A stretch of DNA of 64,000 bases from a virus. The DNA lies in IMG/VR virus record IMGVR_UViG_3300013099_000002, positions 1-64,000 of that record. The stretch is one strand, 5' to 3'. Shown in pieces: positions 4,465 to 62,189 of this stretch (position 1 is the first letter of the stretch; each line of letters opens with the position of its first letter). Below the pieces are notes generated by a model that ran no database searches, was not told where the DNA came from, and saw only the letters and a list, made by a program, of their open reading frames with translations. The translations under genes were made by a program, and so were the position numbers.

Positions 4465-5094
4465 TTACCAGATAGATAAAGAGGATTGCATACAGTCAAC
4501 TTCAAAGGTTGAGCTGAATTGCTTGGTTGGAATTGCTGATACATTATTTTTTCCAAAATCAGAATCATAGAAAGAATAATCCTTTGTTGCCTTTACTTTG
4601 TTTATGCCGAATTCTTCATGCAGGTATTCAATCTGTTTTTGTGACTCTACAGCCTTCTTACAGTAGTTATCCCGAACGTAAGTAACTGCCTCCTTATCAT
4701 TGGTTACGTTTTTATATAAAGCGGCTAATACAAGCCCTGTTCGACCATGCCCACCTATACAACCTATATGTATTTTCTGATTTGCAATCAATTGCACTGA
4801 GAGCCATTCAATTAACTTTTTAAATTCAACTGTATCTTTAGGGGTTCCCATATCCTGAATGAAGAATCCTATTTCGTGTCCAGCACTCCAAGGGTATTCC
4901 TTTTCAGTTAATTTCATGGAGGTGTCAAGACCTACATAAATATCAGCGTCAAGGTGTATTGGTTTGGAACACGAACCACCATAGACAAAGTAATTTTTAC
5001 CTTCAATAGTGATAGGTAGTGCTGGGTGTGATTCACAACACCGTTTGTGGGTAGAGGTGAAACCTATAGAGGTTGCCGGTTTTTTATAACTCAT
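4465..5094 (-). CDS. Cys-based (PTP/dual-specificity) phosphatase
   Basis: CX5R P-loop IGCIGGHGRTG; downstream AVESQKQ Q-loop. Confidence 0.85.
   Translation of the reverse strand: MSYKKPATSIGFTSTHKRCCESHPALPITIEGKNYFVYGGSCSKPIHLDADIYVGLDTSMKLTEKEYPWSAGHEIGFFIQDMGTPKDTVEFKKLIEWLSVQLIANQKIHIGCIGGHGRTGLVLAALYKNVTNDKEAVTYVRDNYCKKAVESQKQIEYLHEEFGINKVKATKDYSFYDSDFGKNNVSAIPTKQFSSTFEVDCMQSSLSIW
4783..4796. repeat. 14-bp inverted repeat, copy 1 (in PTP CDS)
   Basis: TGCAATCAATTGCA. Confidence 0.9.
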
Positions 5095-5096
5095 AG

Positions 5097-6158
5097 TTAT
5101 GCCCTTATCATTTTTACTTTTTTAACTTTCTCAATTGGTGTGACTTGGAACCAAGTTTTGTTTTCTTCGTTCAAGGCCAAATCAGCTTGAAGTTGTTTTA
5201 TTTCTTGTGCCTTTTTAATAGTGGCAAGTTTATCGGCATGGTTTTTAGGTACCCCATATTTTTTAACTTGTTCCTTTTGTAGAGAAACATAATTTTGAAC
5301 CGCCCCTAATTGTTCAACCATAAACCAATCCACGTAGCCGGAAACAGATTCGCCTAATATGGCTTGTGCCTGTAATCGGAAGTCTCGGTGTGTATTATTT
5401 ATAAAGGGGGATTCATTACCATCAATTAATTGAGGTATCTGCCCAGCACGTTGTACATCTAAAATCTTTACAATCTCATAAGAATCGTAAGATGAGAACA
5501 ACATTCCTTTATTAAATATAGGCCCGTTATTGTGACAAAGAGTGAAGGCGGTATCCATCATCATTTCAGCAGAATAAACCCCTGTAACGAAGTTGTGGAG
5601 GCATTGAGTCACCTCCCCCCATGCCTTACCACCATACCCACCGGAAAAACTACCTTCATTAAATAAATCCAATAAGTGTCCGGTGTATCTCCCAAGTATA
5701 AATAAGTGGGTAGTTTCTCTAAATCGTTTTACGGCACCGGTGGAGGATTCATGGCTTATTGATTTAGTAAATTGAATAGGGTCATCACCATGTTTTTTAG
5801 CCGCCCCTGACCAGTCGTAGTCATCGTAAACATGCCTTGATTCCCGTGTACAAATCAAAAGTAAATAATAGAACATACGAACCGCTGATTTAGATAATTC
5901 CTCTTGGTAACGCATAACCAGAATTAACTTATCTCCTAGTGGTTCGTGTTTTCCTGTGGAGGCCATCACTTCAGATAAAATATGATTAGTTAAATAAAAA
6001 TTTATTGCCTCTTCTTCTGGCACAGCATATTTAGATTGATTATCCATGTAATCATTCATAGCAGTTACAAGCCCATCAACCGGCACCATGCTTTTATCTA
6101 AGTGTTGAGTCATTGGCCTATTCATTTGCATTGCCAATGTATCTTGTTCAAGTTTCAT
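5097..6158 (-). CDS. hypothetical 353-aa, probably helical protein
   Basis: Own promoter and CACGGAGG SD; conserved-looking motifs CTRESRH, GGYGGKAW, CHNNG. Confidence 0.75.
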   Translation of the reverse strand: MKLEQDTLAMQMNRPMTQHLDKSMVPVDGLVTAMNDYMDNQSKYAVPEEEAINFYLTNHILSEVMASTGKHEPLGDKLILVMRYQEELSKSAVRMFYYLLLICTRESRHVYDDYDWSGAAKKHGDDPIQFTKSISHESSTGAVKRFRETTHLFILGRYTGHLLDLFNEGSFSGGYGGKAWGEVTQCLHNFVTGVYSAEMMMDTAFTLCHNNGPIFNKGMLFSSYDSYEIVKILDVQRAGQIPQLIDGNESPFINNTHRDFRLQAQAILGESVSGYVDWFMVEQLGAVQNYVSLQKEQVKKYGVPKNHADKLATIKKAQEIKQLQADLALNEENKTWFQVTPIEKVKKVKMIRA

Positions 6159-6190
6159 TTAGACCTCCGTGAATTGCATATCTAAGACTT

Positions 6191-6218
6191 ATTGTACTGA
6201 TATAATTTTAATTGTCAA
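6191..6218 (-). promoter_or_regulatory. conserved early promoter
   Basis: TTGACA-16-TACAAT. Confidence 0.85.
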
Positions 6219-6225
6219 ATTTAAT

Positions 6226-6714
6226 TTACATTAGCCTAACAAGGTCTCTAATATCATCCACATTTAGTTTTTCTACATAATCCATTTGCTGTTTAGTTTC
6301 AACTGCGTGTGATAGGTATTCAAGTCGGGTAAATTGTACCGGTTCTAAATGAGGATACATCACCTTAACCAAACAGGCTATAAATAATCCAGTTCTACCA
6401 ATTCCACCCAGGCAACCAACATAAATAGCTTCACCTTTATGCATAGCTACCATTGTTTTTATTAACCCACGCCTTAACTGCTCAACATTAGGAACCGAAT
6501 AATCTTCAGTCGGAACACTAACATCAAAAGGTAGGTTTATTTCTTCTGCCATTTTCACACCAAACTTATCAGATGGTCTTGCCATATAGGGGCCTCCAAA
6601 TACGAATGCCGCCCTACCACTTGGTAATTGAAAGACAATATACCCGTTATGCCCACCTTGGATATAATCACCCTCATAGGGGTACAAAGTGTTAAATGCT
6701 TCTAATAGTGCCAT
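6226..6714 (-). CDS. second Cys-based (PTP/DSP) phosphatase
   Basis: VGCLGGIGRTG P-loop; AVETKQQ Q-loop. Confidence 0.85.
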   Translation of the reverse strand: MALLEAFNTLYPYEGDYIQGGHNGYIVFQLPSGRAAFVFGGPYMARPSDKFGVKMAEEINLPFDVSVPTEDYSVPNVEQLRRGLIKTMVAMHKGEAIYVGCLGGIGRTGLFIACLVKVMYPHLEPVQFTRLEYLSHAVETKQQMDYVEKLNVDDIRDLVRLM

Positions 6715-6805
6715 TGGTTTTTTCCTCAGTTGTTTTATATGAATACGTTGCTGGGTACAAATTGGTAAAGCTTTGCGCCATCATTTACTCCGTTTAGTAT
6801 TTCTA

Positions 6806-7503: not shown

Positions 7504-7504
7504 G

Positions 7505-7954
7505 TTATGCTCCCAATTTTAATAAAGTTACTGCTATGTTGGTTAGCTTCCAAGTGGAACCACCAACCTTCCCCTTAGCACTTTCAACTTTTTCAATCAA
7601 ACCTTTGTGTTGAAGTACCATCATTTTGCTTGCAGTCAAACTGCTTTTTTCTTTTACTTGACCAGCCACGGTTCCCGTTAAAATATCTTCAGGGTATCTT
7701 GATGCAATTACCCCTAAATAGATTGATAAGTTGCTACCTTTTTCCGGCAATACAACCTTAGTTCTTGGTACAGTGTGCATGATAATACCGTTAGCGGTTT
7801 CTTCATACACAACCCGTAAATACCCACATATACATTTAAGGGTTAAAGTTTGTTGTGATTCCTGCTCATACCAAGCTTGATTAGCACGGCAATGAGGGCA
7901 TGTTTCAAAGCTCATAATTTTACCTAATTTAGTGTTTGACTCCATTAAGTTCAT
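7505..7954 (-). CDS. Zn-ribbon plus winged-HTH protein
   Basis: CPHC..CICG; C-terminal TGTVAGQV..LTASKMMVLQHKGLIEK wHTH pattern. Confidence 0.55.
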   Translation of the reverse strand: MNLMESNTKLGKIMSFETCPHCRANQAWYEQESQQTLTLKCICGYLRVVYEETANGIIMHTVPRTKVVLPEKGSNLSIYLGVIASRYPEDILTGTVAGQVKEKSSLTASKMMVLQHKGLIEKVESAKGKVGGSTWKLTNIAVTLLKLGA

Positions 7955-7972: not shown

Positions 7973-10105
7973 TTATCCCAGCGTTTTGTGAATGAGTGCA
8001 TGGTTACTTATTGATGTAGGAACCGTGTTAAATTCCTTACCGGATTTTGCCGCCATAGATAAAAGTTTAATTGTTAGCTCCGAAGAACCAATGTTTTTTT
8101 CAAGTTCAGGTGTTTGTTCTATGTACCCATCTGCATCAAGAACATCCCCCAAAGTTGTTAGTTGTTGTGCCACCTCCCAACCCTCTGTAACCAAAGAATC
8201 CAATAAATCCTTATCGGTTTCGGCAGGTAGTAGCAAACAATAGTCTTTTTTGGATGATGAGACATGCGTGTTAAGGGTTTCTATTTTTTTACGCATAACC
8301 TCATAGGGAGAATCAAAAACATCCCCAAACGCGCCCATAAAGGCTTTATCAGAATCAGACAAGTAGGAGTGTTTGAGGGTCATATCCAAAAACACCTTGA
8401 CACCTTCCCCTATCGTAAGGTTTAAAAGTAATGATTGTATCCCGTCATCACCAGATAAATTGAAAGTATCAATGTAAGTATCTTCAGTTAAGGAAAGTGC
8501 TTCTCCATTATAATCAGTTATTCGGTTAATAGTTCCTTTTTGTTTAGTTATGCAATTCAATAATGATTTAGCTTCATTTGATAATTCCCCCATCGTAATA
8601 GGAACCTCAATACCAAACCAAACATTGCCAGTTTTTCCATCAATAGTAATTAAATCACCTTCTTTAACCGCACATTTACCAAGCTTCCAAGCCCCGTAGC
8701 CAAGTTCGTGTAGTTCGGTGCAACCAACCACACAAGACTTATTTAAACCCCTTGCCACAACAGCGGCATGTGAAGTTGCTCCACCGGTTTGAGTTAATAT
8801 GCCAACGCAAGCCTCCATTGCCTCAATATCATCCGGTGTAGTTTCCTTTGCAATTAAGATTGCATCCCCAGTGCAATTGATTGCAAACTCAGCAGATAAG
8901 GCAACGATACCGGAAACAACTGAACCCGAAGCAGGTATTCCTGTGCCGGTAGGTTTCACTTTAAATGAAGGATTAATGTTTGCCTGTTGCAGTAATTCAA
9001 ACTCTTTATAGGATACCCGTTTAAGTGCTTCTGTTTTAGTTATTATCTTTTCAGAATACAGGTCATAAGCAATTTTAAATGCAGCTTGGGCAGACCGTTT
9101 ACCGTTTCTGGTTTGAAGGATATAAACCTTCCCATTTTCTATAGTAAATTCAATGTCCTGCATATCTTTATTGTAAGCTTCCAATCGTTGTGCAATTTCC
9201 AACAATTCCAGCTCCACCGTTTCATTCCATTCAGCCATTTTATATAGTGGGTCAGGTGTTCGGATACCGGCAACAACATCTTCGCCTTGTGCATTAACCA
9301 AGTATTCTCCAACCGTCCCAATATCGCCCGTATTAGCACACCTAGTAAACAATACACCTGAACATGAATTATCATTCAAGTTACCAAAAACCATGGCTTG
9401 TATCGTTACAGCGGTACCCCATTCATCTGAATAGCCATGCATTTTACGATAATGTTTGGCGCGTGGATTATTCCAGCTATCCCAAACCGCCACAATAGAA
9501 TCACGTAGCTGGTCATAAAGTGGAACCTCAAAGCAAGAATCCACCTGAAAATGATTACCATAAATTGCTTCATAATCAGTAACCACCTTAGTTAAATCAT
9601 CTTCGGTCAAATCCGAATCTTCAAGAACCCCTTTTGTCTTGGATAGTGCATCTTCAAACAGTTCAGAATCAATACCGTAAGCGGTGGTTCCCATCATTTG
9701 CATTAGTCTACGTTTAGAATCCAACATAGCCCTGCGCCCCAAGCGTTCCTCCCAAAATGGTTCCGATTCCTCAGTAAGCCCAACATTCAATATAGTGTCC
9801 ATCATGCCAGGCATTGATACCCTTGCCCCAGACCGAACGGACAATAAAGGATGGAACCCATATAATTCTTTTAGCCAAGTTATCTGCTCAATAACATGGG
9901 TCATAGTTTCATTAATTATTTCTGCTTTTTTAAATTTAGGTGCATTCAAATAGTGCATACAGGCGGTAGTTGGAATAATGAATCCTGCCGGTACCGGTAT
10001 TTTTAGGTTTGCAATTTCACATAAACCAGCACCCTTTCCACCCAATGTATTGATTTGAGCTTTGGTACCAGATGCGCCATTTTTACTAAAGTTAAATATT
10101 TTCAT
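7973..10105 (-). CDS. ppdK: pyruvate phosphate dikinase-like protein lacking the PEP/pyruvate-binding barrel
   Basis: LGGKGAGL, LLSVRSGARVSMPGMMDTILNVG, QGEDVVAGIRTP, DIEFTIE..LQTR; phospho-His motif GGATSHAAVVARG; last ~205 aa unrelated to the PPDK C-domain. Confidence 0.85.
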   Translation of the reverse strand: MKIFNFSKNGASGTKAQINTLGGKGAGLCEIANLKIPVPAGFIIPTTACMHYLNAPKFKKAEIINETMTHVIEQITWLKELYGFHPLLSVRSGARVSMPGMMDTILNVGLTEESEPFWEERLGRRAMLDSKRRLMQMMGTTAYGIDSELFEDALSKTKGVLEDSDLTEDDLTKVVTDYEAIYGNHFQVDSCFEVPLYDQLRDSIVAVWDSWNNPRAKHYRKMHGYSDEWGTAVTIQAMVFGNLNDNSCSGVLFTRCANTGDIGTVGEYLVNAQGEDVVAGIRTPDPLYKMAEWNETVELELLEIAQRLEAYNKDMQDIEFTIENGKVYILQTRNGKRSAQAAFKIAYDLYSEKIITKTEALKRVSYKEFELLQQANINPSFKVKPTGTGIPASGSVVSGIVALSAEFAINCTGDAILIAKETTPDDIEAMEACVGILTQTGGATSHAAVVARGLNKSCVVGCTELHELGYGAWKLGKCAVKEGDLITIDGKTGNVWFGIEVPITMGELSNEAKSLLNCITKQKGTINRITDYNGEALSLTEDTYIDTFNLSGDDGIQSLLLNLTIGEGVKVFLDMTLKHSYLSDSDKAFMGAFGDVFDSPYEVMRKKIETLNTHVSSSKKDYCLLLPAETDKDLLDSLVTEGWEVAQQLTTLGDVLDADGYIEQTPELEKNIGSSELTIKLLSMAAKSGKEFNTVPTSISNHALIHKTLG
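8872..8885. repeat. 14-bp inverted repeat, copy 2 (in PPDK CDS)
   Basis: TGCAATTGATTGCA. Confidence 0.9.
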
Positions 10106-13335: not shown

Positions 13336-13349
13336 TGCAATCAATTGCA
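13336..13349. repeat. 14-bp inverted repeat, copy 3
   Basis: TGCAATCAATTGCA. Confidence 0.9.
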
Positions 13350-15550: not shown

Positions 15551-17377
15551 ATCACATCCGCTGTACACGTTCAAAGCAACGCCAAAACTCTTGACTGCTT
15601 TGAAGCAAACAACGTATTGCAGACTTTCTGAAGTCGATTACAGAGCCAACACCGCCTTCCTTGAATGAATCCATGAAATCATCATTTAAAGCCGGTAGTT
15701 CGTCCCTACGTTCGGATAACAAGAACAATAAAGCCCTATCGGTATTATCCCCACGCTCAAATGCGGAAGTATGTAATAACTCCAGTAATTTTGCTATCTG
15801 TTCATTGTGGCTCATCACTACCTCTACGCTTTAACATGTTTCTGCTTGTCTTAATACCGAAGGCCACCTTCATAAATCTGGAAGCACCATCATTGCATAC
15901 GTCTATCATGCATCGTTGCCCAGCGTTACTGGTTTCGGCATCCAAGAAACTCATTGCCAAATTACAATGCCACCCATGAGCATAATCAGGGGCTTTCTCA
16001 AAGGCATCCTTGAGGATTCCCATAGCCATACTTATCAATGTCTCAGTTTTTGGTTTTGCTTCTGGTATGAAGTCTTGAGAATCGAATTCACGTAACCCTT
16101 TACTTCGTGCTTCATGTATCTGCATTTCATAAAAATTAACTTCTGATTTTACAGCTAAATAATAATTAGTTTTTGATTCCAATTCACGCCTTAATGTTTC
16201 TAGATTAAGTTCCCTATTGTGTAGTTGGTCTTTATGTTGCTGAAGTAGTTTTTTCATACCGCACCTGTTTAGTATTTTTTATTAAAGTAATCACAAAATC
16301 ATCCATTTGAGATATGGTAGCTTTTGCCATGGTTTCAAACATTTTCTTTTGGTAACCATTAGCTTTATAGCTTGCCATTTTAAATATTGTACGCCAGTCT
16401 CCATCATATTCAAAGACCGTAGCCGCATCTAAAAAAATACAGTGAACTTTCATTCTATGTTGGACTGGTTGTTTTCTAAAAGTGGATGTAGATTTAAGTG
16501 TTGTAGTCATTATTTGAATTCCTGTACAGTGAAGTTATGAGCTAATAGTAGCCCGTCAATATAGTTCTGAATACTACTGTGAACATTCCGTAAAGGTTCT
16601 AACGCCATAACATTACCTTCTGTAGTCTCATAAAGGTCAGGTCTGTCGTTCTGTGTAAGGGGTATTAGTCCGTGTTTTAATGGATTACCAAGGTATGTGG
16701 TTATTTGCACTCTAGGTACGTTCTCAAGCTCTTCATCGGCTTGAATTAAAGCATCCTGTAAATTGGATGCAATCATTTGCAGCATTACTGCTGTTTGTTC
16801 ATTAGTCATTAAGTTTCCTTAGAATAATTCGATACCTGCGAAGTCGCAGATGCTTCTGTGTTTAAAGTTTCCGGTTTTAATCATATTTAATGCATGTTCA
16901 ATATGCTTAATCTGCCCACGAAGAATATGAAGGTGCCTTCTTTTTCTTGCAAGAAAACAATCCATGGCTTCTGGTTCAGTTTCGGAAGCGTATTGCTTAA
17001 CGGCATTTAGATTAACGAAACGCTCCCTATACAAACCATTGACCGCCACAACTCTTATCCAAGCACCACAAGGCGTTCTACGGATTATATTGAAGTGTTC
17101 TGTGTTAATGTAATCACCGGATATTGATACCCTAAATAGGGTTCCTAGTTGTTCTGGCATCTTGTATGGCATCCTTTGTATTTTAAGTAATCCATCATTA
17201 TTGAATCGAAGTCGAAGTAACAAGATAAAAATGGAAACGTCCTTCCATTCTGCATGTCATTATAAGCTTCCGTGGCATCATGGCAAGCCGCCATCCATTT
17301 CTCAGTGCTTTCATCTTCTGCCCATTCAACCTGTGCATCTATATAAAGAAATACGTCAAGTTGTTCGGTCTCAGTCA

Positions 17378-19342: not shown

Positions 19343-19356
19343 TGCAATCAATTGCA
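19343..19356. repeat. 14-bp inverted repeat, copy 5
   Basis: TGCAATCAATTGCA. Confidence 0.9.
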
Positions 19357-21116: not shown

Positions 21117-21689
21117 TCAATTATCTTTTTCACCTAACACCTTATTGCAATCAATTGCACTTGCAAGCCGCAAATACTTTTCCTCATCAACTTCAAGTAT
21201 ATCATAGAGCCATGTTTTAAAATAATAGTCCAGCTCTTGTGAGCGTGGATGTTTACCTTTGTGGTAGGTAAGAAAATCCTTCCGGTTCTGAACTTTATCT
21301 GCTATTGCCATTGGTCGCAAATAAGGTGTTTTGCTCATCACATCATTAAGATTCTTAATAAGCAATTGCCTTCGTGGATTAATTACAGTTTGGGAGGAAA
21401 ATCTATTGAGTTGTTGCCGGTATTCCATGGCTATGATTATTGAAGCTGGATTACATTCTGCTAATAAATTAGGATGATAAGCTAACATCCTATGTAATTC
21501 TTCATCTAATTGAACCACCGGATGTAAACAATAGCCCTGTTTGCTTATTAAAGGGGCTGAGAGCGTATCTAAGACCACTAACCCCTCATCAATATGCGTT
21601 ATATAAGGTACATCGGTTCTTTTGGCTTTACGGCCTTTATACAGGTTCTTGATTATCTGGTAATGAACATCCTGATTAAATGGTGTCAT
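21117..21689 (-). CDS. degenerate HD-domain (RelA/SpoT hydrolase-like) protein
   Basis: R..VPYITH, CLHP (normally LHD), IADKVQN. Confidence 0.45.
   Translation of the reverse strand: MTPFNQDVHYQIIKNLYKGRKAKRTDVPYITHIDEGLVVLDTLSAPLISKQGYCLHPVVQLDEELHRMLAYHPNLLAECNPASIIIAMEYRQQLNRFSSQTVINPRRQLLIKNLNDVMSKTPYLRPMAIADKVQNRKDFLTYHKGKHPRSQELDYYFKTWLYDILEVDEEKYLRLASAIDCNKVLGEKDN
21146..21159. repeat. 14-bp inverted repeat, copy 6
   Basis: TGCAATCAATTGCA. Confidence 0.9.
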
Positions 21690-23786: not shown

Positions 23787-24257
23787 TTACCCTCTCAGTG
23801 CAATTGATTGCAATTGTTCTTCACGTTCTTTACAGTGTTTGATTACCACCTTACATTGGTCTATTGACATTGAGCCAATATGACAGGCATGGTGGTCAAG
23901 TCCGGTTTTGCTACGCAACCATGCATAAGCTTTACCTCTGGATAGTTGTTTTTTCTTCCAAATATTATCGAAGAATGAGTGTGCCTGCATTCGCCATTGC
24001 CTTAGTTCTACATTGGCAAGATTCCCTAATGGTTCCTCAGTATTAGGATGACATCCTACACGGGCATCACATGGCTCACAGACAAAAAATATCTTTGTCC
24101 ACAAATCCTTACGGTGGGGGTAAACATCCTTACCTGTGGCTCTCACAGCAGAATTACCGCAATAGTTGCACGTTACTTCGCCTACTTTTGGCTCCTTTAC
24201 ACCTGCATCCAACATAGCTTGTCTTAAATTATTCATATTAGTCTCTATAAAATCCAA
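23787..24257 (-). CDS. DUF3268-like zinc-finger protein
   Basis: CNYCG..VYPHR..CEPCDARVGCH..PLG.LAN.ELR..R..AH..FD.IW..CHIG. Confidence 0.75.
   Translation of the reverse strand: MDFIETNMNNLRQAMLDAGVKEPKVGEVTCNYCGNSAVRATGKDVYPHRKDLWTKIFFVCEPCDARVGCHPNTEEPLGNLANVELRQWRMQAHSFFDNIWKKKQLSRGKAYAWLRSKTGLDHHACHIGSMSIDQCKVVIKHCKEREEQLQSIALRG
23799..23812. repeat. 14-bp inverted repeat, copy 7
   Basis: TGCAATTGATTGCA. Confidence 0.9.
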
Positions 24258-27597: not shown

Positions 27598-27611
27598 TGC
27601 AATTGATTGCA
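27598..27611. repeat. 14-bp inverted repeat, copy 8
   Basis: TGCAATTGATTGCA. Confidence 0.9.
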
Positions 27612-30865: not shown

Positions 30866-31590
30866 ACCTTTTTGCCTTTACGTTTAATAGTTACACCTTT
30901 AGAATTCTTCGGTGCAATTGATTGCAATTTTTCTGCTTCATTAAAGTTCTTTTTAATCTGCAGTTGTTTTTTGGTTTCCCACGCTTTTGCATAGTCAGTA
31001 TCCTCAAACAATTTGGAGAAACCGGTTACATGTTTAAGCTTTAATAGTTCTTCGGGTTCCATGCCCAACTCATTACAAATTTGAGCATCCTCCCAACCAT
31101 TATCAAGCATTTCAAATACCATGCTGGACATACCGTTTACAGAATGCTTCCCCCGTGCCCTATTATGGCGAACTGTTGAGGCCATTCTGTCATTGATGTT
31201 TGAGTTGATTACCACCACCGGTAACTTACCCAAATTCATTTCAGTAATATCCTTATTATTAAGCATAGTGAAGTATCTGTGAAACCCATCAACAATCACA
31301 TAGGTATCAGTTTCTTCATCGTGTATGGTCACTACAGGCTGTGTATAACCATCATGCTTGATAGATGTATGCAATAATTTTAATTCAACGGAAGCAACGC
31401 TATTAGGGTTGTAATCGTTTGGCTTAACTTTCGCAATATCCACCCACCGAATTAAATCTACCGGCTGATGTTTTCGTGGAGAAATACTGTTATGCAAATA
31501 TTCACGCAACTCATAAAGAAATGCATCTTTATCTTTTGCTGAATCGTAAGCCTCTTTTATTTCTTCTTTTAAGTGTTTTTTTATGCTCAT
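30862..31590 (-). CDS. ibrB: IbrB-like ParB/Srx-domain protein
   Basis: PNDYNPNSVA..ELKLL..SI..DGYTQPVV..IVDGFHR..RMASTVRHNRARGKH. Confidence 0.85.
   Translation of the reverse strand: MSIKKHLKEEIKEAYDSAKDKDAFLYELREYLHNSISPRKHQPVDLIRWVDIAKVKPNDYNPNSVASVELKLLHTSIKHDGYTQPVVTIHDEETDTYVIVDGFHRYFTMLNNKDITEMNLGKLPVVVINSNINDRMASTVRHNRARGKHSVNGMSSMVFEMLDNGWEDAQICNELGMEPEELLKLKHVTGFSKLFEDTDYAKAWETKKQLQIKKNFNEAEKLQSIAPKNSKGVTIKRKGKKV
30913..30926. repeat. 14-bp inverted repeat, copy 9
   Basis: TGCAATTGATTGCA. Confidence 0.9.
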
Positions 31591-33412: not shown

Positions 33413-34017
33413 TAAACCCTCACATCGAAAGTTTCAGCGCAATGAGGGCAAATCACTTCTAAAGTTTCTTCCGTGTTATCTTTGAATTTATCATCCAACT
33501 CTTTAGCCGTTTTATCCATATCACCATCCTCAACTTCTGAGTAATTTTTTGAGGTAGGATTTATCTCCGGTGTAAAACCCGAACCATCCAATTCTGCGGC
33601 CTCAGATAGAGCTAATAATTCTTCTTCAATATCTGCCATGTCTTGTTCACCAAAACCCATTATATTGAAATCAATTTCATCAGATTCTTGTAGTGCAACC
33701 AGCTCCGCATTTAAGGCTTCAACATCCCATTCAGAATTCATAGCTAATTTATTATCAGCTAACATATAAGCACGTTTTTGGATGTCAGATAATCCTTCAA
33801 TTATCACCACCCGTACCTTAGTTTTTTTCAGTAAAGTAAGGGCCTCAAATCGACAATGCCCTGCCAAAATCCCAAAGTTTTCATCCACTACGATAGGGTT
33901 TGTATATCCGAATTCTTCAATGCTCGCAATCACTTCATTCACCTGTTCTTCGGTGTGAATTCGCACGTTATTTTCAGAAGGAATTAGTTGTTTTAGGGGT
34001 ATAATTTTTGTTTTCAT
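33412..34017 (-). CDS. ParB N-terminal-domain protein with acidic linker and C-terminal Zn knuckle
   Basis: NNVRIH..SIEEFGYTNPIVVD..ILAGHCR..AYMLADNK..SEWD; CPHC. Confidence 0.85.
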   Translation of the reverse strand: MKTKIIPLKQLIPSENNVRIHTEEQVNEVIASIEEFGYTNPIVVDENFGILAGHCRFEALTLLKKTKVRVVIIEGLSDIQKRAYMLADNKLAMNSEWDVEALNAELVALQESDEIDFNIMGFGEQDMADIEEELLALSEAAELDGSGFTPEINPTSKNYSEVEDGDMDKTAKELDDKFKDNTEETLEVICPHCAETFDVRV

Positions 34018-34314: not shown

Positions 34315-34328
34315 TGCAATTGATTGCA
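34315..34328. repeat. 14-bp inverted repeat, copy 10
   Basis: TGCAATTGATTGCA. Confidence 0.9.
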
Positions 34329-39042: not shown

Positions 39043-39903
39043 TTAATCCACTTCTGCAGTTAAGGAAACATCAGGCCATAATTCTTCAAATATTTCTAGT
39101 ACCTCTTCCCATGAAGAGCCTTTCATTGTATCTTTTAATGATTTAGGTTTAGGTGCCTTCTTAGGTTTGTTACCAGACAAATATGCCAAACAAATAGATT
39201 CCATTGCCACGTTAGCAAATTCCGTGTCAGCATCATTTTTAGCCTTATCCACGGCATCATTGATGACCTCTTTTTGGTCATCATGCACCTTAAAGGTTAA
39301 GGTTGATAATTTAGTTGATTCTTCCATTGCATCTGGAGCATCTTCATCATCCTCGTCATCAGAGGCAGTCGAACCTTTTTGTTGTTCTTTGATGTAGGCT
39401 TGTAATTGAATCACGGTTAGCTCGGAAGCAATTTCCACCCATTCATCAACATTTTCTTCATTGATAATATCGCACAGTTCTTTCAGTTTAGACCAACCCA
39501 AACCTTCAACCTTTTCCCATGGAATATTAGCTTCAACCAAGCCGTTATAAATCCCAACCATATACATTGCTTTACGATAACCAAGCCCATATTCTTCTTC
39601 AACAAAAGATTTGAAATTATCAAAACCCTCATCAGTGTACCAACCATTTGATTGAATAACCGATAGAACCCCACCCAACTGAAAATATGAAAAGTCAATA
39701 TCTTGAGCCAATTTTGAAACCATGGCATAAGCTTTCACCTTGGTTAAATTTTCAAGTTTGTGAGCGGTATCGACAATTAAATCAGATTTTGCTTTGGTAG
39801 CAGTTTTTGGTTTTACTGCTGTGGTAGTTTTTGGTTTCGCAGTTGTTGTTTTTTTACCTGCCGCAACTTTCGCAGCAGTTGTTGTTTTTTTAGCTTCAGC
39901 CAT
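39043..39903 (-). CDS. putative DNA-binding protein with K/A/T-rich N-terminal tail
   Basis: Start taken at MAEAKK (GGAG SD); helical core F..FVEEEYGLGYRKA; followed by a terminator. Confidence 0.65.
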   Translation of the reverse strand: MAEAKKTTTAAKVAAGKKTTTAKPKTTTAVKPKTATKAKSDLIVDTAHKLENLTKVKAYAMVSKLAQDIDFSYFQLGGVLSVIQSNGWYTDEGFDNFKSFVEEEYGLGYRKAMYMVGIYNGLVEANIPWEKVEGLGWSKLKELCDIINEENVDEWVEIASELTVIQLQAYIKEQQKGSTASDDEDDEDAPDAMEESTKLSTLTFKVHDDQKEVINDAVDKAKNDADTEFANVAMESICLAYLSGNKPKKAPKPKSLKDTMKGSSWEEVLEIFEELWPDVSLTAEVD

Positions 39904-39928
39904 TTTTGTATCTCCAATAATAAAATAA

Positions 39929-39940
39929 ACCATCCATGGT
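39929..39940 (-). promoter_or_regulatory. CsrA/RsmA-type stem-loop ACC-AUGGAU-GGU
   Basis: CANGGANG hairpin upstream of a GGAG SD. Confidence 0.6.
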
Positions 39941-40152: not shown

Positions 40153-40728
40153 TCATATTTCACTATTTGCAATCAATTGCAATTTTTCTATATCTTTAGG
40201 ATGTTTCTTAGCCCACTCTGTTAAAGCGGTTGCATTAACTTTAGGGACTTTTACATACCCCAATAAACCCAAACCAAATTGAGCTAAACAAAAAGCATCG
40301 ACCTCATTATCAGTCCCTTCTAGGTGCCAACGCTTGTAAGTTTCCAACATCATAACATCTTTCTTTACATTACCTTTACCAGAAACGAACTTTTTTAATG
40401 AAGTTGGGGGTATATCTAAAATAAGCACTCGGTATAAATGCAACGTGTATTTAATCACTGTACCCACTTCAACCAGCGTTACCAGTGTGTGCTTATTAGC
40501 GAACCCGTAGCCCTCAATTATGCAAACATCAGGCTCATACTTATCCAGTAATTCATAAAGCCTGTCTGCGAATGCTTTTAATCGTGGCATCCCTTTTAGT
40601 GTTGGAAAGTTCCATTCCTGCTTATACAGTAAATTTATTTTTTCTTCCCCGTGTTTCAATTCCAAGATAACCACGCCTGTTTTAGTTGAAGTATCCAACC
40701 CTAAAACAATCATGTTAAGTACTTCCAT
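40153..40728 (-). CDS. ruvC: RuvC-like Holliday junction resolvase
   Basis: LGLDTSTKTG, IIEGY, PTSLKKFVSGKGN..K, DNEVDA. Confidence 0.9.
   Translation of the reverse strand: MEVLNMIVLGLDTSTKTGVVILELKHGEEKINLLYKQEWNFPTLKGMPRLKAFADRLYELLDKYEPDVCIIEGYGFANKHTLVTLVEVGTVIKYTLHLYRVLILDIPPTSLKKFVSGKGNVKKDVMMLETYKRWHLEGTDNEVDAFCLAQFGLGLLGYVKVPKVNATALTEWAKKHPKDIEKLQLIANSEI
40168..40181. repeat. 14-bp inverted repeat, copy 11
   Basis: TGCAATCAATTGCA. Confidence 0.9.
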
Positions 40729-44005: not shown

Positions 44006-44019
44006 TGCAATTGATTGCA
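44006..44019. repeat. 14-bp inverted repeat, copy 12
   Basis: TGCAATTGATTGCA. Confidence 0.9.
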
Positions 44020-44497: not shown

Positions 44498-44983
44498 TTA
44501 TTTCTCCCAATTATGGAACACAATTTTTGAGGCTTCTTTTAAATCCTGCTCGGCATCTAATTTAGCCCCACTCAATCCTCTCCTAATATCGGCAAAGGTA
44601 CATAATAATTTTACTTGATTAACAGTGTAGTATTTATTCCGTTTATCATCTTGAATAAAACCGGTAGGAATATCTTTATTTTTTATCCACAACCGGATAG
44701 TTTGTAGACCTCTACCAATTAAAGTACAGGCATCTTTTATGGAATAACATTCAAGGGTTTTTCTGCCGTGTAAATTTAATGTCACCACTTCAAAAGAATC
44801 AAACGGTTTTCTTGGTTTGGGTTTCCGTTTTGACTTCTTGGCATTTTCAAGGCGTACCTTTTCCCTATAATTTGGGTCGTTTTTATATCGTTCCCTTCGT
44901 TGCTCATTGAAATCCGCTTTATTGTCATCGTACCACTTTTTAAAGGGTTTCTTTTTTGGTCGTTTCTTAATTTTAACTGGCAT
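44498..44983 (-). CDS. MerR-like HTH DNA-binding protein
   Basis: YSIKDACTLIGRGLQTIRLW...IP.....KYYT..QV. Confidence 0.65.
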   Translation of the reverse strand: MPVKIKKRPKKKPFKKWYDDNKADFNEQRRERYKNDPNYREKVRLENAKKSKRKPKPRKPFDSFEVVTLNLHGRKTLECYSIKDACTLIGRGLQTIRLWIKNKDIPTGFIQDDKRNKYYTVNQVKLLCTFADIRRGLSGAKLDAEQDLKEASKIVFHNWEK

Positions 44984-49577: not shown

Positions 49578-49591
49578 TGCAATCAATTGCA
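49578..49591. repeat. 14-bp inverted repeat, copy 13
   Basis: TGCAATCAATTGCA. Confidence 0.9.
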
Positions 49592-53234: not shown

Positions 53235-54484
53235 ATTGTTACTAGATATTGTTTCACCGCTTTATAAACCATACTTGTCAGGTCAGCATGGCTTACGGCA
53301 GGATAATAAACTGTTAGCTCTTCATCGGTTTCTGTTTTCGGGAACTTATCCAACTCAATAATATTCTCCCAAATAACATCAAAAGGTTTTCCTTCAATGC
53401 AATCAATTTCATATTCCACATAACCGAAGTTTTCAAGTATACCTACCATTAACTCATTAGCAGATTCACAGCTTGTTATTCCATTAAAATCAAATATGTC
53501 ATCAATCCTTCCAGCCCTGTACAGCTCTTTAGGGAGTATTTCGGCATCATTGGTGGTCATTATGGTAAGAACTCTTGAATCACGTTCCTGAAGCCACCAC
53601 AGGACTGCAGATAGCATTCGTGAACTAACCCCCGAATCATCCCCAGCTTTAATTGATTTTTCAATCTCATCAAACAACAATACGCATGGCTGGCAGTTAT
53701 CGACAATAGCTAATGCATTGGCAAGGTTTTCTTCTGATTCACCTACATATTTTCCCATCAATGCCCCAAGGTCAATTCTGTAAAGTGGAACACCTAATTG
53801 ATTAGCCAAATATTTAGCTCCCAAAGTTTTACCAGCTCCAGGAATACCATCAAATAATAAGCCTTTTGGAACCAGTACCGGCTCAACACCATAATCAACA
53901 AATATTTTTCCTTCAATTGCCAACCATTTCTTTAAAAATGAAGGTGGTTTGTAATAATCGTACTTAGTTGAAACTTGTTGTATACCTTGCAATCGCCCAA
54001 CGTAAATTCTACGGGTTTCCATTATCGCCCGTGGAGTCAATTCCTTAAATTTAGTTTGGGCTAACCGGCATATTTCCCCAACATCTTTTAAACACAATCC
54101 GCTTAGTGTTGCCGCCAAGGGTTGTACAGTTTCCTCATCAGTTAAATTAGATAAAAAATCAAGTAACATACCTTGAGGTAGTTGCACCACACCGGCATCA
54201 AACATTAAGGGGCTAGAATCGCTTGGATTGATTACTATGAGGGTTTTTTCTGAGTCAACCATACATTCATAAGCCATATAGTAATTTACGTTCTCAGGAT
54301 GCAATAAATAGAAATACTGGGTTTCGGGTTCAAAGTCCTCTTGTTTGATTTTTTTAATATGGTTTTCGTCAATAAGCATAACCGATTCATCTACAATGTA
54401 AGATAAAACATCCCCTACATTTACAGTGTCATCGGTTGTTACCTTGATAAGTGGAAGTCCTGATTTTAATGATAGTTCAAGCAT
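53231..54484 (-). CDS. AAA+ ATPase (Ycf46-like)
   Basis: GIPGAGKT, GKYVGESE, LLFDEIEK, TTN, RAGRID. Confidence 0.85.
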   Translation of the reverse strand: MLELSLKSGLPLIKVTTDDTVNVGDVLSYIVDESVMLIDENHIKKIKQEDFEPETQYFYLLHPENVNYYMAYECMVDSEKTLIVINPSDSSPLMFDAGVVQLPQGMLLDFLSNLTDEETVQPLAATLSGLCLKDVGEICRLAQTKFKELTPRAIMETRRIYVGRLQGIQQVSTKYDYYKPPSFLKKWLAIEGKIFVDYGVEPVLVPKGLLFDGIPGAGKTLGAKYLANQLGVPLYRIDLGALMGKYVGESEENLANALAIVDNCQPCVLLFDEIEKSIKAGDDSGVSSRMLSAVLWWLQERDSRVLTIMTTNDAEILPKELYRAGRIDDIFDFNGITSCESANELMVGILENFGYVEYEIDCIEGKPFDVIWENIIELDKFPKTETDEELTVYYPAVSHADLTSMVYKAVKQYLVTI

Positions 54485-54747: not shown

Positions 54748-55047
54748 TCACTCCTTTAGTTTGTGGTGGTTTATACAGTCGGTTTGATTATCGAACACTA
54801 ATTCCCGACCAGATAAATTAAGTGGTATCCCCATTCGATTAGCTAAATTAACGAAATCATTTTGATGCCCCATTAAAAGCATGTGACCGGCACATTGAAG
54901 CGTGGTTTCTTTGTGGCATACAAAACTACCAGCCATTAAAATTTCAATCATACGTTCTTTACCAAGCCACCCAAGTAAACTGTCTTTACGAAAAGGACAA
55001 GCACCACAAGGTTTCTTTACGTTAGGTAATTTCATTGGTTTTTGCAA
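54748..55047 (-). CDS. Cys/His zinc-binding protein, paralog of 23404..23784
   Basis: KPCGACPFRKDS..FVCHK..QCAG. Confidence 0.6.
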   Translation of the reverse strand: MQKPMKLPNVKKPCGACPFRKDSLLGWLGKERMIEILMAGSFVCHKETTLQCAGHMLLMGHQNDFVNLANRMGIPLNLSGRELVFDNQTDCINHHKLKE

Positions 55048-55056
55048 TTGATTGCA
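55043..55056. repeat. 14-bp inverted repeat, copy 14
   Basis: TGCAATTGATTGCA. Confidence 0.9.
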
Positions 55057-56570: not shown

Positions 56571-56584
56571 TGCAATCAATTGCA
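56571..56584. repeat. 14-bp inverted repeat, copy 15
   Basis: TGCAATCAATTGCA. Confidence 0.9.
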
Positions 56585-56585
56585 A

Positions 56586-60592: not shown

Positions 60593-60601
60593 ATCAGACT
60601 C

Positions 60602-60796
60602 CTATCTAATTAGTTTTCGTAAATTAATTAATTCCGTGTCGTGTCTATGACAGCACGAATTCAAATATTCAACTTCCCATTCTGATTCTGTTTTTTCAGA
60701 GTCAAATGCGAACTTCCCAGAAGCCACTTCAATTAACTTGCCATTGTTCATTTTAATAAAAGCCGCTAACCCTAATTTTCTTGTTTCAATTCTCAT
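60602..60796 (-). CDS. small conserved hypothetical protein
   Basis: TRKLGLAAFIKM..KL...KFAF pattern. Confidence 0.55.
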   Translation of the reverse strand: MRIETRKLGLAAFIKMNNGKLIEVASGKFAFDSEKTESEWEVEYLNSCCHRHDTELINLRKLIR

Positions 60797-61254
60797 ATCA
60801 CTCTACTCTCTATTTTGTGGTACTTAACTTTGCCTGCCAAGTAAGCACTTGAGGCTAATTTTTCTGAATTATAACAACCCAAACTAATACGTTTACCATG
60901 CAACACAATTCTAGCTTCAAAGGAACCATTATTAACCATAGAATAACCTTTTACATTACTACGGTTAAATTGTTGCTCACTATGAGTAAGTAAACGTAAA
61001 TTAGAAATATCATTACTATTTCTAATTCTATTAAAATGGTCTACTTCAAACCCTTCCGGTATAGCACCATAATGATATACCCAAATAAGATTATGCGCCT
61101 TGTGCTGGATACCATCAACCCGTACACAAACATAGCCATAAGAATTAACACCAGTTACGGCATCGCCTAATCTAGCTCTACCTTTATCAACTAGCCAGAA
61201 TAAAGTACCATCTTTGTATGTAAATAAAGATTTTATTTCCTCAACAGTAATCAT
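60793..61254 (-). mobile_element. HNH homing endonuclease with AP2-like C-terminus
   Basis: AHNLIW..HYG.IP...EVDHFNR.RNSN.ISNLR; ARI...GKRISLG. Confidence 0.85.
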
Positions 61255-61796
61255 ATTACTGTACTCAATCTCAACACTTTGAGGTCTAAAACCTCAGAGT
61301 GATTATTAGTTAATTCCAATTGGAAAAAAAGCCCACCCGAAATAAATACATCTATTGAGTATGGAACTAAATCACCAGTTATTCCGTAATGAGTATGTTT
61401 TGCTACAGTACCATTATGGATTGCTACAACTTCACTAATTCTTCGTTTATTGCCCACTGCATCAAGAGCCGTAATTATCCACTTTGAAGATGGATTTAAG
61501 GCCACTGACAGACTATCAACAATAACACTTGCACCAACACCAACAGAAGCATTTATTTGCTGTGCCGCTGTCCCATCGTTACCTTTAGGCCCTATTGCAC
61601 CTTGAGTACAGGATTCTAAAATTTCAGTAACATTGGCTACAGATAATATTTCAGTCTCTTCCACCGATTCAATAATTTCAGTAACATCTGCCACATCATC
61701 AATGTAGGTAATGTTATCAACAGATAATAATTCTGTAACTTGGTCTTGTGTAACCAACTCACAAACTGTTTCTGTTTCTGTAATTATAGAAGTCAT
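61251..61796 (-). CDS. virion fibre protein with collagen-like triplets
   Basis: GAIGPKGNDG; C-terminal domain similar to that of 59159..60592. Confidence 0.55.
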   Translation of the reverse strand: MTSIITETETVCELVTQDQVTELLSVDNITYIDDVADVTEIIESVEETEILSVANVTEILESCTQGAIGPKGNDGTAAQQINASVGVGASVIVDSLSVALNPSSKWIITALDAVGNKRRISEVVAIHNGTVAKHTHYGITGDLVPYSIDVFISGGLFFQLELTNNHSEVLDLKVLRLSTVI

Positions 61797-62158
61797 GGTC
61801 TTGTTACTTCAGGGTCAACAGTGAAACCACCCTTAACAATACGAATAACATTTTCTGGGTCTGCGGTTTCTACAAGTTCTAAATCGTAAACACCCGATAC
61901 CCAAACCATTGCTTCAGTATCCGTTGCCCCAACATATAAATCTATACGTCCAGTTTCCGAACCAGCTTCAATAGTTATTCTACCGTTAGCAGTTGTGAAT
62001 TCCTCCAATACTGTATCAGAATCAATAGATTCACGAATCTGCATTCTAGCTTCATAACCGGCTAAAGAAATCGCCACCTTATCAGCGTCACGCCTAAAAA
62101 ACGTGTGCCTAAACGTAGCCCCTTGTTCTATCAATAAGTCTTTTTCGACTGCCGCCAT
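61793..62158 (-). CDS. tail/baseplate-associated Ig-like protein
   Basis: DLLIEQGATF....L.GY.ARMQIR....GVYDLEL......R...G...V.PEVT. Confidence 0.65.
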   Translation of the reverse strand: MAAVEKDLLIEQGATFRHTFFRRDADKVAISLAGYEARMQIRESIDSDTVLEEFTTANGRITIEAGSETGRIDLYVGATDTEAMVWVSGVYDLELVETADPENVIRIVKGGFTVDPEVTRP

Positions 62159-62175
62159 AATTCACCTCCACTCGT

Positions 62176-62189
62176 TGCAATCAATTGCA
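62176..62189. repeat. 14-bp inverted repeat, copy 16
   Basis: TGCAATCAATTGCA. Confidence 0.9.

Follow-up and report, generated by a model that had tools for sequence, protein, structure and literature searches.

A 14-bp palindrome recurs at even intervals along the genome of the phage studied here and is retained, with invariant arms, in a clade of divergent relatives. The window analysed is the whole 64,000-nucleotide stretch at positions 1 to 64,000 of the virus record IMGVR_UViG_3300013099_000002. We conclude that the 14-mers probably constitute a double-stranded DNA array bound by a protein. The fuller explanation, in which this array serves a dimeric phage DNA-binding protein, likeliest the product of the gene at 39043-39933, is the one that we favour, with moderate confidence.

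The window contains 16 exact copies of TGCAATCAATTGCA, eight per orientation (Table 1), and all positions listed in the earlier note were verified. As that note had observed, the spacer between the TGCAAT and ATTGCA arms is exclusively CA/TG in the window. Counting with zero or one mismatch was extended, as had been proposed, to the full genome and its relatives. The full genome (G000; 89,837 bp with a terminal repeat of 123 bp and all genes on the minus strand) holds 21 exact copies, 11 in one orientation and 10 in the other. Dinucleotide-preserving shuffles yielded 0.00 copies. Decayed copies are nearly absent, with only two one-mismatch copies in the window, three in G000 and two in the relative G002, and longer flanks are not conserved.

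Table 1. Positions of the 14-bp sites and of the genes considered as encoding their reader
Feature	Position	Strand	Context
Exact site	4783..4796		within phosphatase-like gene 4465-5094, read as VQLIA
Exact site	8872..8885		within PPDK-like gene 7973-10105, read as AINC
Exact site	13336..13349		immediately past stop of gene 13350-14285; 7 nt upstream of consensus promoter TTGACA-16-TATAAT
Exact site	14768..14781		gene junction, in the order stop / 1 nt / site / ctGGAGG / ATG
One-mismatch copy TGCAATCATTTGCA	16768..16781		
Exact site	19343..19356		within small gene 19241-19471
Exact site	21146..21159		29 nt ahead of stop of gene 21117-21689
Exact site	23799..23812		12 nt ahead of stop of gene 23787-24257; the next gene's SD and ATG come after the site
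Exact site	27598..27611		3' end of gene 27580-27777; consensus promoter 20 nt downstream of site
Exact site	30913..30926		close to 3' end of IbrB-like ParB gene 30862-31590
ParB_N-only protein	33412..34017	-	core; 201 aa, GxxR motif
Exact site	34315..34328		2 nt past stop of gene 34331-34519, then terminator-like hairpin
Candidate reader gene	39043..39933	-	likely start ATG at 39903
Exact site	40168..40181		3' end of RuvC gene; 27 nt upstream of promoter with -35 box at 40135-40140
Exact site	44006..44019		junction of gene 44021-44497 and RecA/UvsX gene 42936-43991
Rival reader, MerR/Xis-type HTH_17 protein	44498..44983	-	core; 161 aa, phrog_19880 'transcriptional regulator'
Exact site	49578..49591		immediately past stop of DnaB-like helicase gene; 12 nt upstream of consensus promoter
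One-mismatch copy TGCAATCAATTTCA	53398..53411		
Exact site	55043..55056		5' leader, about 30 nt downstream of -10 box; promoter at 55114
Exact site	56571..56584		1 nt past stop of gene 56586-57008
Exact site	62176..62189		junction, in the order stop / 4 nt / site / GGAGG / ATG

The earlier description of a genome-wide lattice, as opposed to a local operator, held for the full 89.8-kb genome and was borne out statistically. The coefficient of variation (CV) of the gaps in G000 was 0.43, compared to 0.94 under random placement (P<0.0002), and spacing was also more even than under a null that draws gene junctions at random. Across genomes the CV ranged from 0.43 to 0.56, compared to about 0.95 by chance, with six of the eight genomes reaching P<=0.001. 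Even spacing occurs in the cultured phages PG28 (CV 0.37) and DLP5 (CV 0.49) as well. Throughout the clade, copies follow each other at about 2-4 kb along the whole genome.

Conservation of the motif far exceeds what could be seen from one window. The 14-mer is the top k-mer in G000-G004, G007, G009 and G010 with 21-50 copies each, and thus in at least seven complete or near-complete relatives (22-50 copies each) besides G000. The clade includes cultured phages of Vibrio, Stenotrophomonas and Pseudomonas, and its G+C content spans 38% to 62% although the 14-mer is AT-rich; the lattice genomes detectably share no more than about 35 of 150 proteins, at 25-55% identity. Because the 14-mer is kept across such divergent G+C contents and proteins, a phage-borne reader would account for its conservation better than a host factor. 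The common core is TGCAA-N4-TTGCA with invariant arms, a central step that is always pyrimidine-purine (CA/TG, TA or CG, depending on the lineage), and a base pair at position +/-8 that tends toward symmetry and differs between lineages (C..G, G..C or T..A). In Pseudomonas phage SM1 the inner bases differ, giving TGCAA[AG]CGCTTGCA. Orientation is 1:1 in G000 and G003 and strongly biased in G004 (29 of 30) and G010 (21 of 22); a purely symmetric reader would not predict such a bias.

With respect to genes, 12 of the 21 G000 copies are intergenic, while intergenic DNA makes up approximately 5.5% of the genome (binomial P=1e-10), and four more lie within 30 nt of a stop codon, in agreement with the earlier remark that many copies sit at gene 3' ends or junctions. 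Intergenic G000 copies usually either follow a stop codon by 0-4 nt or come shortly before a -35 box; four G000 sites precede consensus promoters by 7-27 nt. In G009, G002 and PG28, many sites precede a TTGAC -35 box by 5-11 nt, often directly after a terminator. About one third of sites lie deep within genes. These intragenic copies number 11-34 per genome, compared to 0.3-0.6 expected in synonymous-codon shuffles, a 20- to 100-fold excess, and they use all three reading frames (QSIA/QLIA and AINC/AIDC, with CNQL in relatives). Both results uphold the earlier view that the constraint is on the nucleic acid and not on the protein; an equal frequency in codon-preserving shuffles had been named as evidence against it. 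In the PPDK-like, phosphatase, ParB_N and 146-aa families, intragenic sites occupy homologous columns in three to four distant genomes, one of them in a different frame and some in flipped orientation. The site at 4783 has counterparts at the homologous column in G001, G004 and G010, read in another frame (CNQLQ), and that at 8872 (alignment column 444) in G001, G002 (flipped, AIDC) and G007. A second, imperfect palindrome, TGCAAT-N4-ATTGCA, is present near the latter site at 8849-8864.

The binder named first in the earlier note, 39043..39903, emerged as the favoured candidate: it is encoded by a core gene, its predicted fold resembles ParB/KorB DNA-binding domains (Z 6.8-7.8), and a site lies upstream of its gene. 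We therefore tentatively regard the product of 39043-39933 as the likeliest reader. The check for genes co-occurring with the motif that the note had suggested showed this family, which matches phrog_17202, in all complete lattice genomes; it also occurs in Vibrio cousins. The protein comprises a Lys/Thr/Ala-rich tail, an all-helical ParB/KorB-DBD-like domain and a ribbon-helix-helix (RHH)-like segment. No Pfam or PDB sequence family match backs the ParB/KorB assignment. In a structural search with an AF2 model (pLDDT 86.8), the top eight matches consisted only of Raf1 alpha-domains and ParB-family DNA-binding domains, the latter being ParB-parS (Z 7.8), Spo0J (7.1), KorB-OB (6.8) and KorB (5.9); all remaining matches scored 5.1 or less. 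The model thus suggests a ParB/KorB-like fold, with Z values that are middling for an all-helical domain and equally high for the non-DNA protein Raf1. The C-terminal segment matched RHH proteins with Z 4.2-4.4. The N-terminal CTPase domain of ParB is absent from the candidate, and a KorB-like sliding clamp is therefore unsupported for this protein alone.

The site upstream of the reader-family gene occurs in seven of nine genomes, at a distance of 54-235 nt in most relatives, and in DLP5 as well. In the window, the adjacent promoter with its -35 box at 40135-40140 drives a small ORF and the candidate gene. Among further IMG/VR loci, a site lay 54-110 nt upstream of 12 of 24 reader genes compared to 75 of 590 other genes (Fisher P=2e-5, an optimistic value because these loci are phylogenetically related). 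In SM1, whose inner motif bases deviate, Gln replaces the otherwise invariant Tyr in the putative recognition helix (RKAxYL) of the homologue. Two observations count against this reader: G000 and Vibrio phage PG28 have nearly the same putative recognition helix, yet their central bases differ, and G013, G011 and G015 harbor the gene yet have only one, three and five sites, respectively.

We consider it rather doubtful that the same array is read instead by the HTH_17 protein at 44498-44983 or by a different small conserved protein, whether by itself or together with the ParB_N protein. The HTH_17 protein, also proposed in the earlier note, did prove to be a core protein, occurring in every complete lattice genome as well as in KarBoss and annotated in PHROGs as a transcriptional regulator; however, no genome has a site upstream of its gene, and its HTH is just moderately conserved. 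All five complete genomes tested encode ParB_N proteins, and in SM1 a ParB_N gene directly follows the reader-family gene, but no recognisable HTH or other DNA-reading domain was found in the G000 protein (33412..34017), which may be the reader's partner but not the reader. The second G000 ParB, which is IbrB-like, shows no clade-wide conservation. As a whole, the ParB/IbrA-IbrB modification module (29.6-33.4 kb) has no counterpart in other lattice-bearing genomes and is therefore an unlikely reader. In keeping with the earlier note, which had envisaged parS/matS/Noc-type sites or stoperators and a dimeric protein, the reader would be best matched by a dimeric DNA binder of the parS/Noc/KorB or stoperator kind. 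The role that the note offered to ParB/IbrAB as reader or client was not sustained. Its further candidate, 7505..7954, likewise received no support, having no DNA-binding signature and being missing from several lattice genomes.

An RNA-level element is improbable. According to this explanation, the transcribed palindrome folds into a small hairpin (stem of 5-7 bp, loop of 4 nt) past stops and upstream of ribosome-binding sites, where a phage RNA-binding protein or nuclease processes, stabilises or translationally couples cistrons. As all genes lie on one strand, every site is transcribed in some message, and both orientations yield an identical stem. Among 127 intergenic sites, 47 begin 0-11 nt past a stop codon, 34 of these within 0-4 nt and often with an SD sequence 2-10 nt further on, which could also indicate such a role, and the orientation bias in G004 and G010 would fit RNA. 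However, the hairpin is weak (-2.5 kcal/mol, z -1.2), and the arms are identical clade-wide without compensatory change, fitting base-specific recognition of a duplex rather than a stem. Many sites in PG28, G002 and G010 are flanked by an intrinsic terminator on one side and the next -35 box on the other, about a third of sites occupy conserved positions deep within genes, and the even spacing lacks an obvious RNA rationale.

Equally improbable are sites of enzymatic DNA transactions, that is, T5-like site-specific nicks, localised modification, or hotspots or entry sites for recombination-dependent replication by RecA, exonuclease and RuvC. Such a function would agree with the regular spacing, with the core recombination module adjoining the candidate reader gene, with the one-strand bias in G004 and G010, which resembles strand-specific nicks, and with the heavy modification reported for DLP5 DNA (PMC5834331). 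On the other hand, neither a conserved nickase nor a conserved site-specific methyltransferase co-occurs with the lattice, the HNH gene falls outside the core set, orientation is balanced in G000 and G003, and for anti-restriction modification a target of 14 bp occurs much too seldom. Selfish or historical repeats without function for the phage would be short boundary sequences, either residues of modular recombination or elements that foster it, comparable to the PeSL cassettes of T4-type phages. They would explain why many sites coincide precisely with gene boundaries in a mosaic set of accessory genes, but are hardly credible, as the perfect conservation of the 14-mer over the whole G+C range, the positional conservation in core genes, the non-conserved longer flanks and the significantly even spacing make them unlikely.

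The closest published parallels to a protein-binding array are KorB with its OB sites, which number a dozen or so on RK2, and the 17-bp repeats of Cluster O mycobacteriophages. On the IncP-1 plasmid RK2, one short palindrome is likewise spread over a replicon of roughly 60-100 kb, with proximal OB sites 4-10 bp upstream of promoters and distal ones up to >1 kb away (PMC11790492). As in the phage, some copies abut -35 boxes and others are promoter-distant or intragenic. KorB reads them with a ParB-family HTH domain, for which the phage candidate shows a fold resemblance to the KorB DBD-OB complex over 107 of 114 residues, and the regulatory role does not need ParA. In contrast to KorB, the candidate lacks the CTPase/clamp domain, has an RHH-like tail in place of the KorB C-terminal domain and has no identified KorA-like partner, and its phage-borne replicon carries 21-50 statistically evenly spaced sites. 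Cluster O phages such as Corndog (PMC4351075) share >30 palindrome copies per genome with invariant arms, part of them intergenic and about one third intragenic, inconsistently oriented and mostly not tied to promoters. They also encode ParB-like domain proteins, and a dimeric DNA-binding protein was likewise predicted for their dyad-symmetric repeats (PMC4351075). However, their repeat (TGTTCGG-N3-CCGAACA), phages and hosts are unrelated, and their array becomes denser toward one end of the genome. The present lattice has even spacing, persists in hosts whose G+C differs widely, and has a candidate reader whose gene is preceded by a site. Cluster A stoperators, to which a phage protein binds and thereby silences the genome (L5 gp71; PMC9283540), also comprise >20 copies of a single 13-14 bp site, found at promoters and in short gaps between genes, and DLP5 is temperate, too. 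Unlike the present palindromic arms, they are asymmetric, monomer-bound and strictly oriented with transcription, whereas orientation is 10:11 in G000 (but 29:1 in G004) and about a third of the sites are deeply intragenic. ParB-parS and Noc-NBS systems resemble the lattice in using 14-16 bp palindromes for ParB-type HTH dimers, with Noc sites dispersed over the chromosome; parS sites, however, cluster near one locus and function with ParA, and no ParA (PF13614) was found in G000, G001, G002, G004 or DLP5. In arm sequence and spacing, the site also has a likeness to the octamer repeats of CytR, and its central pyrimidine-purine step is reminiscent of the kinked CG step found in LacI-family operators. 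Both are resemblances only: there is no LacI-family protein among the proteins scanned, and the lattice hosts span lineages not known to have CytR.

In the mechanism that we propose, the 14-mers would be bound with high affinity by a phage-encoded protein acting as a symmetric dimer, and selection would keep them at roughly regular 2-4 kb intervals over the whole chromosome. The 39043-39933 product would combine a ParB/KorB-type HTH DNA-binding domain with the RHH-like tail as a probable dimerisation element; its two HTH units would contact the invariant TGCAA/TTGCA arms, and the central pyrimidine-purine step would supply the deformability needed by the complex. A role as KorB-like regulator or organiser is possible, and we put it forward with reserve. 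Genome organisation, protection or self-marking, which the earlier note had suggested, would likewise be hypothetical roles. Sites abutting -35 boxes, the reader's own included, may be operators like the promoter-proximal OB sites, and evenly spaced junction and intragenic sites may anchor the protein genome-wide, possibly joined by the conserved ParB_N-only protein. Anchored in this way, the protein could keep the phage chromosome silent, organised or shielded, for instance in a plasmid-prophage state such as that reported for the relative DLP5.

An exact count of the 14-mer TGCAATCAATTGCA in the window yielded 16 copies, eight in each orientation and all at the positions where the earlier note had placed them, and no copy occurred in dinucleotide-preserving shuffles of the window. 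The arms form a perfect inverted repeat, with the asymmetry confined to the central CA/TG. A search of the window with a free spacer (TGCAAT-NN-ATTGCA) returned the identical 16 sites and, thus, the spacer is always CA/TG, as had been noticed; only two copies with one mismatch were found. Reading the 14-mer as a 10-bp palindrome plus a 4-bp duplication (TGCAATTGCA + CAAT) was discarded as numerology, with zero copies of the 10-mer, and a 'CTG' extension 3' of the CA form in this genome turned out to be the context of the downstream Shine-Dalgarno sequence, outside the motif. The window covers the opening 64 kb of an IMG/VR phage genome, G000. The complete genome comprises 89,837 bp with a 123-bp terminal repeat, carries essentially every gene on the minus strand and harbors 21 exact copies of the site (11 and 10 in the two orientations).

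The gaps between the sites were more even than expected by chance, with a coefficient of variation (CV) of 0.43 in G000 and 0.49–0.56 in five relatives compared to an expected value of approximately 0.95 (P≤0.001). They were also more even than under a null model in which gene junctions are drawn at random. Based on these two comparisons, we concluded that the regular lattice described in the earlier note is real. Its claim that the constraint acts on the DNA held as well: intragenic copies are read in all three frames and occur 20–100 times more often than in synonymous-codon shuffles.

An exact-match scan of IMG/VR identified the 14-mer many times over in contigs of 90–100 kb. It is the top k-mer in seven complete or near-complete relatives, with whole-record counts of 39 (G001), 50 (G002), 22 (G003), 30 (G004), 47 (G007), 23 (G009), and 22 (G010). 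A single palindromic, operator-like site is, accordingly, dispersed over the replicon in 21 exact copies in G000 and in 22–50 in the relatives. The G+C content of the lattice genomes ranges from 38% to 62%, and the relatives share with G000 only about 35 of 150 proteins, at 25–55% identity; megablast of 12 kb of the window against cultured phages gave no match. Variants of the site occur throughout the clade. The outer pair is C..G, G..C or T..A in different lineages, the centre is CG (GCAATCGATTGC) in some lineages and TA (TGCAATTAA[T/C/G]TGCA) in the Vibrio phages PG28 and KarBoss and several uncultured lineages, and Pseudomonas phage SM1 carries TGCAA[AG]CGCTTGCA. The constant part is TGCAA-N4-TTGCA, and the central step was pyrimidine-purine (YR) in every variant seen, with inner tetramers of the types TCAA, TTAA, TCGA and RCGC. 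The cultured phages PG28, KarBoss, DLP5, DLP3 and SM1 each have their own version of the motif, with 28 sites in Stenotrophomonas phage DLP5 (CV 0.49, P=0.0002) and 31 in PG28 (CV 0.37).

Positions of the lattice sites and of the features discussed in the text
Feature	Genome	Position	Strand
Exact 14-bp sites (starts)	window	4783, 8872, 13336, 14768, 19343, 21146, 23799, 27598, 30913, 34315, 40168, 44006, 49578, 55043, 56571, 62176	
Sigma70-type promoters (approximately 18)	window	259-55114; examples 13328, 20933, 27077, 40140, 49565	minus
Module with PPDK-like protein	window	3629-10105	
Imperfect palindrome TGCAATTAAGATTGCA, 4-nt spacer	window	8849-8864	
Rejected reader candidates	window	6834-7244, 7189-7503, 7505-7954	
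ParB_N-only protein	window	33412-34017	
Staphylococcal-nuclease-like protein (PF00565)	window	34519-34872	
APS kinase (PF01583, E=5e-52)	window	37220-37846	
Candidate reader, phrog_17202 family	window	39043-39933	minus
HTH_17 protein	window	44498-44983	
Portal gene with upstream lattice site	G000, window numbering	87425-89251 equivalents; G000:C1:89263	
Reader-family gp050 and ParB_N-type gp051	SM1 (L211, NC_041877.1)	44202-46335	
Long ORF with two lattice sites	G010 (L135-L136)	~17.2-34.8 kb	

Twelve of the 21 sites in G000 are located in the roughly 5.5% of the genome that is intergenic (binomial P=1e-10), and for another four a stop codon is no more than 30 nt away, in line with the placement at gene 3' ends and junctions noticed earlier. 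Usually, a stop codon is followed after 0–4 nt by the site and, 2–25 nt further, by a Shine-Dalgarno sequence and the ATG. In eight genomes pooled, 47 of 127 intergenic sites begin 0–11 nt past the stop. This sharp adjacency to stop codons keeps an RNA-level role of the sites alive; however, it may merely reflect the packing of a 14-bp site into minimal spacers. In addition, the predicted hairpin is weak (MFE -2.5 kcal/mol, z -1.2), and the arms never vary or covary across the clade. Since they are invariant, no compensatory changes back a stem, and the sites show neither the stable stem nor the compensatory changes of REP- or boxB-like hairpins.

With regard to promoters, four sites in G000 are positioned 7–27 nt upstream of consensus TTGACA-16-TATAAT promoters, and sites in G009, G002 and PG28 occur 5–11 nt upstream of TTGAC. 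Other sites are separated from the nearest consensus promoter by over 1 kb. An obligatory promoter element was rejected because only 5–6 of the approximately 18 consensus sigma70-type promoters of G000 have a site nearby. These promoters are strong and nearly identical (aaataaatTTGACAattaaaattat...gTATAAT, 16-nt spacer), and downstream of each one runs a conserved leader with aaacGGAttaaa-N-ATG at its end. The promoters cluster in the half of the genome that holds the early and replication genes, with none in the structural half. Flank logos revealed no second conserved motif beside the sites of the kind expected for the operator of a KorA-like co-repressor.

Several sites are old and constrained in their position. 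A site occupies the homologous alignment column in the genes for a PPDK-like protein (G000, G001, G002, and G007), a 146-aa protein (four genomes), the ParB_N-only protein (three to four) and a phosphatase-like protein (four). In the phosphatase column, the reading frame differs in G000 (VQLIA vs CNQLQ), and in the PPDK column the site is flipped in G002 (AIDC vs AINC). Such a flip takes two substitutions, and its single-step intermediates, TA or CG centres, are exactly the variants present elsewhere. Taken together, the homologous columns, the change of frame and the flips argue for selection that acts on the duplex sequence at particular positions and is largely indifferent to orientation. 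The orientation relative to the coding strand was unbiased in G000 (10/21) and G003 (11/22). In G004 (29/30, P=6e-8) and G010 (21/22, P=1e-5), by contrast, it was strongly biased (loci L129-L139), and G009 displayed a reversed bias (5/23); such biases are not expected from a purely symmetric reader. The long ORF of G010, of ~5,846 aa according to crude ORF calling, is a single one. Inside the PPDK-like gene of the window, a gap of 7 nt separates the imperfect palindrome from the exact site that starts at 8872, and the two possibly form a double site.

Iterated profile searches identified a core set that every complete lattice genome shares with the Vibrio cousins, consisting of replication/recombination proteins, the ParB_N-only protein, the HTH_17 protein and the candidate reader. 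Some relatives that retain the candidate reader gene have few sites. The ParB/IbrAB (ParB/PAPS-reductase/GNAT) module, which the earlier note had suggested as binder, has no counterpart in other lattice genomes and was dropped, as was its candidate 7505-7954, which, like two neighboring proteins, belongs to no DNA-binding family and is patchily distributed.

The candidate reader has 296 aa and matches no Pfam family; its homologues include gp066 of DLP5, the PG28 gene at 6373-7353 and gp050 of SM1. Its model, based on a 30-sequence alignment, has a pLDDT of 86.8, and its best eight structural matches were only Raf1 alpha-domains (Z 8.8) and ParB-family DNA-binding domains (ParB-parS 7.8, Spo0J 7.1, KorB-OB 6.8 over 107/114 residues, KorB 5.9); rows outside these two groups scored at most 5.1, and SopB, P1 ParB and VirB appeared further down. 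Residues ~207–255 resemble ribbon-helix-helix (RHH) proteins (Z 4.2–4.4). Since Z values of this size are middling among helical folds, we regard the modeled ParB-family DNA-binding fold as supportive, not proven. Sequence-profile searches against PDB and Pfam, started from alignments of 6 and of 30 members, gave nothing significant, and Foldseek against PDB gave no match at E≤0.001, with ParB, Noc and Spo0J as weak rows. In place of a ParB_N domain the protein has a disordered tail, and ParB_N is found solely on separate proteins.

Independent of the fold, the candidate reader gene carries an autoregulation-like signature. In 7 of 9 genomes, a site is located 68–235 nt upstream of the gene, often abutting the -35 box, and in DLP5 the distance from site end to gene start is 66 nt. 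In further IMG/VR loci, a site 54–110 nt upstream was observed for 12 of 24 family genes compared to 75 of 590 other genes, with a Fisher P of 2e-5 that is optimistic because the loci are related. This signature is absent from every other DNA-binding candidate in the genomes compared. The only other gene with a positionally conserved upstream site is the portal gene, for which the distance is 12–240 nt in 7 of 10 genomes. In SM1, inner motif bases differ, and the Tyr of RKAxYL, invariant elsewhere, is Gln. The SM1 gene for gp050 (449 aa) is directly followed by that for gp051, and this adjacency hints that the two families may act together.

Most likely, judging from sequence comparison and the structural model, the candidate reader docks on the sites as a symmetric dimer. 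The dimer would read the arms and require the deformable YR centre. Promoter-proximal copies would be operators, and the evenly spaced remaining sites would serve a process that reaches over 1–2 kb, for example spreading, bridging or roadblocking. Perhaps with the ParB_N protein as a partner, this process might extend to the entire chromosome. A far-reaching version, which we consider rather unlikely, is a virus-encoded 'chromatin' system in widespread 80–120 kb phages of Proteobacteria. There, TGCAA-N4-TTGCA sites, evenly placed every 2–4 kb, would recruit a split ParB-like machine composed of an HTH-RHH reader of the 39043 family and a separate ParB_N nucleotide-binding protein. The machine would spread or bridge from each site and coat the viral chromosome, thereby organising, silencing or shielding it in plasmid-like carriage or replication, and the spreading range would set the spacing.

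Neither a ParA-type ATPase (PF13614) nor a tyrosine integrase was found in G000, G001, G002, G004 and DLP5. Nevertheless, DLP5 is temperate and is kept as a phagemid, with heavily modified DNA (PMC5834331), and it is therefore reasonable to propose, for some members of the clade at least, that the lattice serves to silence or organise the whole genome in a plasmid-like state. DLP5 shares a module that is core across the clade except G003 and encodes a PPDK-like protein from which the customary C-terminal barrel is missing, a pair of DSP-phosphatase-like proteins (phrog_17568) and uncharacterised proteins of 252 and 353 aa. An APS kinase and a staphylococcal-nuclease-like protein are also encoded in the window.

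Among known systems, KorB/OB of RK2 also combines a dispersed short palindrome with promoter-proximal and distal copies, the former 4–10 bp upstream of promoters and the latter up to >1 kb away (PMC11790492). However, KorB has an N-terminal ParB CTPase domain and forms a sliding clamp; the candidate reader lacks this domain. The KorB DNA-binding domain resembles the model at Z 6.8, which is middling for a helical fold and above the unrelated rows, with no sequence-profile match. Cluster O mycobacteriophages carry 34 copies of 17-bp palindromes that likewise have invariant arms and are partly intragenic; their function is unexplained, and a dimeric protein is predicted to bind (PMC4351075), as proposed here. 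Stoperators of Cluster A phages are asymmetric, monomer-bound and oriented with transcription (PMC9283540), whereas the two arms of a lattice site form a perfect inverted repeat, and orientation ranges from unbiased to oppositely biased between genomes. Stoperators occupy short intergenic spaces of temperate phages; the G000 sites are likewise enriched between genes, in a genome with no integrase or ParA found. ParABS systems comprise ParA and clustered parS, in contrast to the dispersed, even lattice and five genomes with no PF13614 match. Full-text literature searches for the motif strings returned unrelated primers only, and the DLP5 and DLP3 genome papers do not mention the repeat. On sequence grounds, we concluded that the lattice is real and strongly selected and belongs with dispersed operator or parS-like arrays.

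Should this view of the sites be correct, they represent a genome-wide cis-code under strong selection, which is exact over hosts of 38% to 62% G+C, set at regular intervals and, inside genes, kept at conserved positions. Some phages of the clade are candidates for therapy against Vibrio, Stenotrophomonas and Pseudomonas. Because the cultured phages carry versions of the motif, both reader and phenotype are directly testable, and the even spacing raises the concrete question of which process has a range of ~1–2 kb on phage DNA. If true, the proposed reading would mean that phages, too, have whole-replicon DNA reading of the KorB or Noc type, and would provide a testable handle on long-unexplained phage palindrome arrays such as those of Cluster O.
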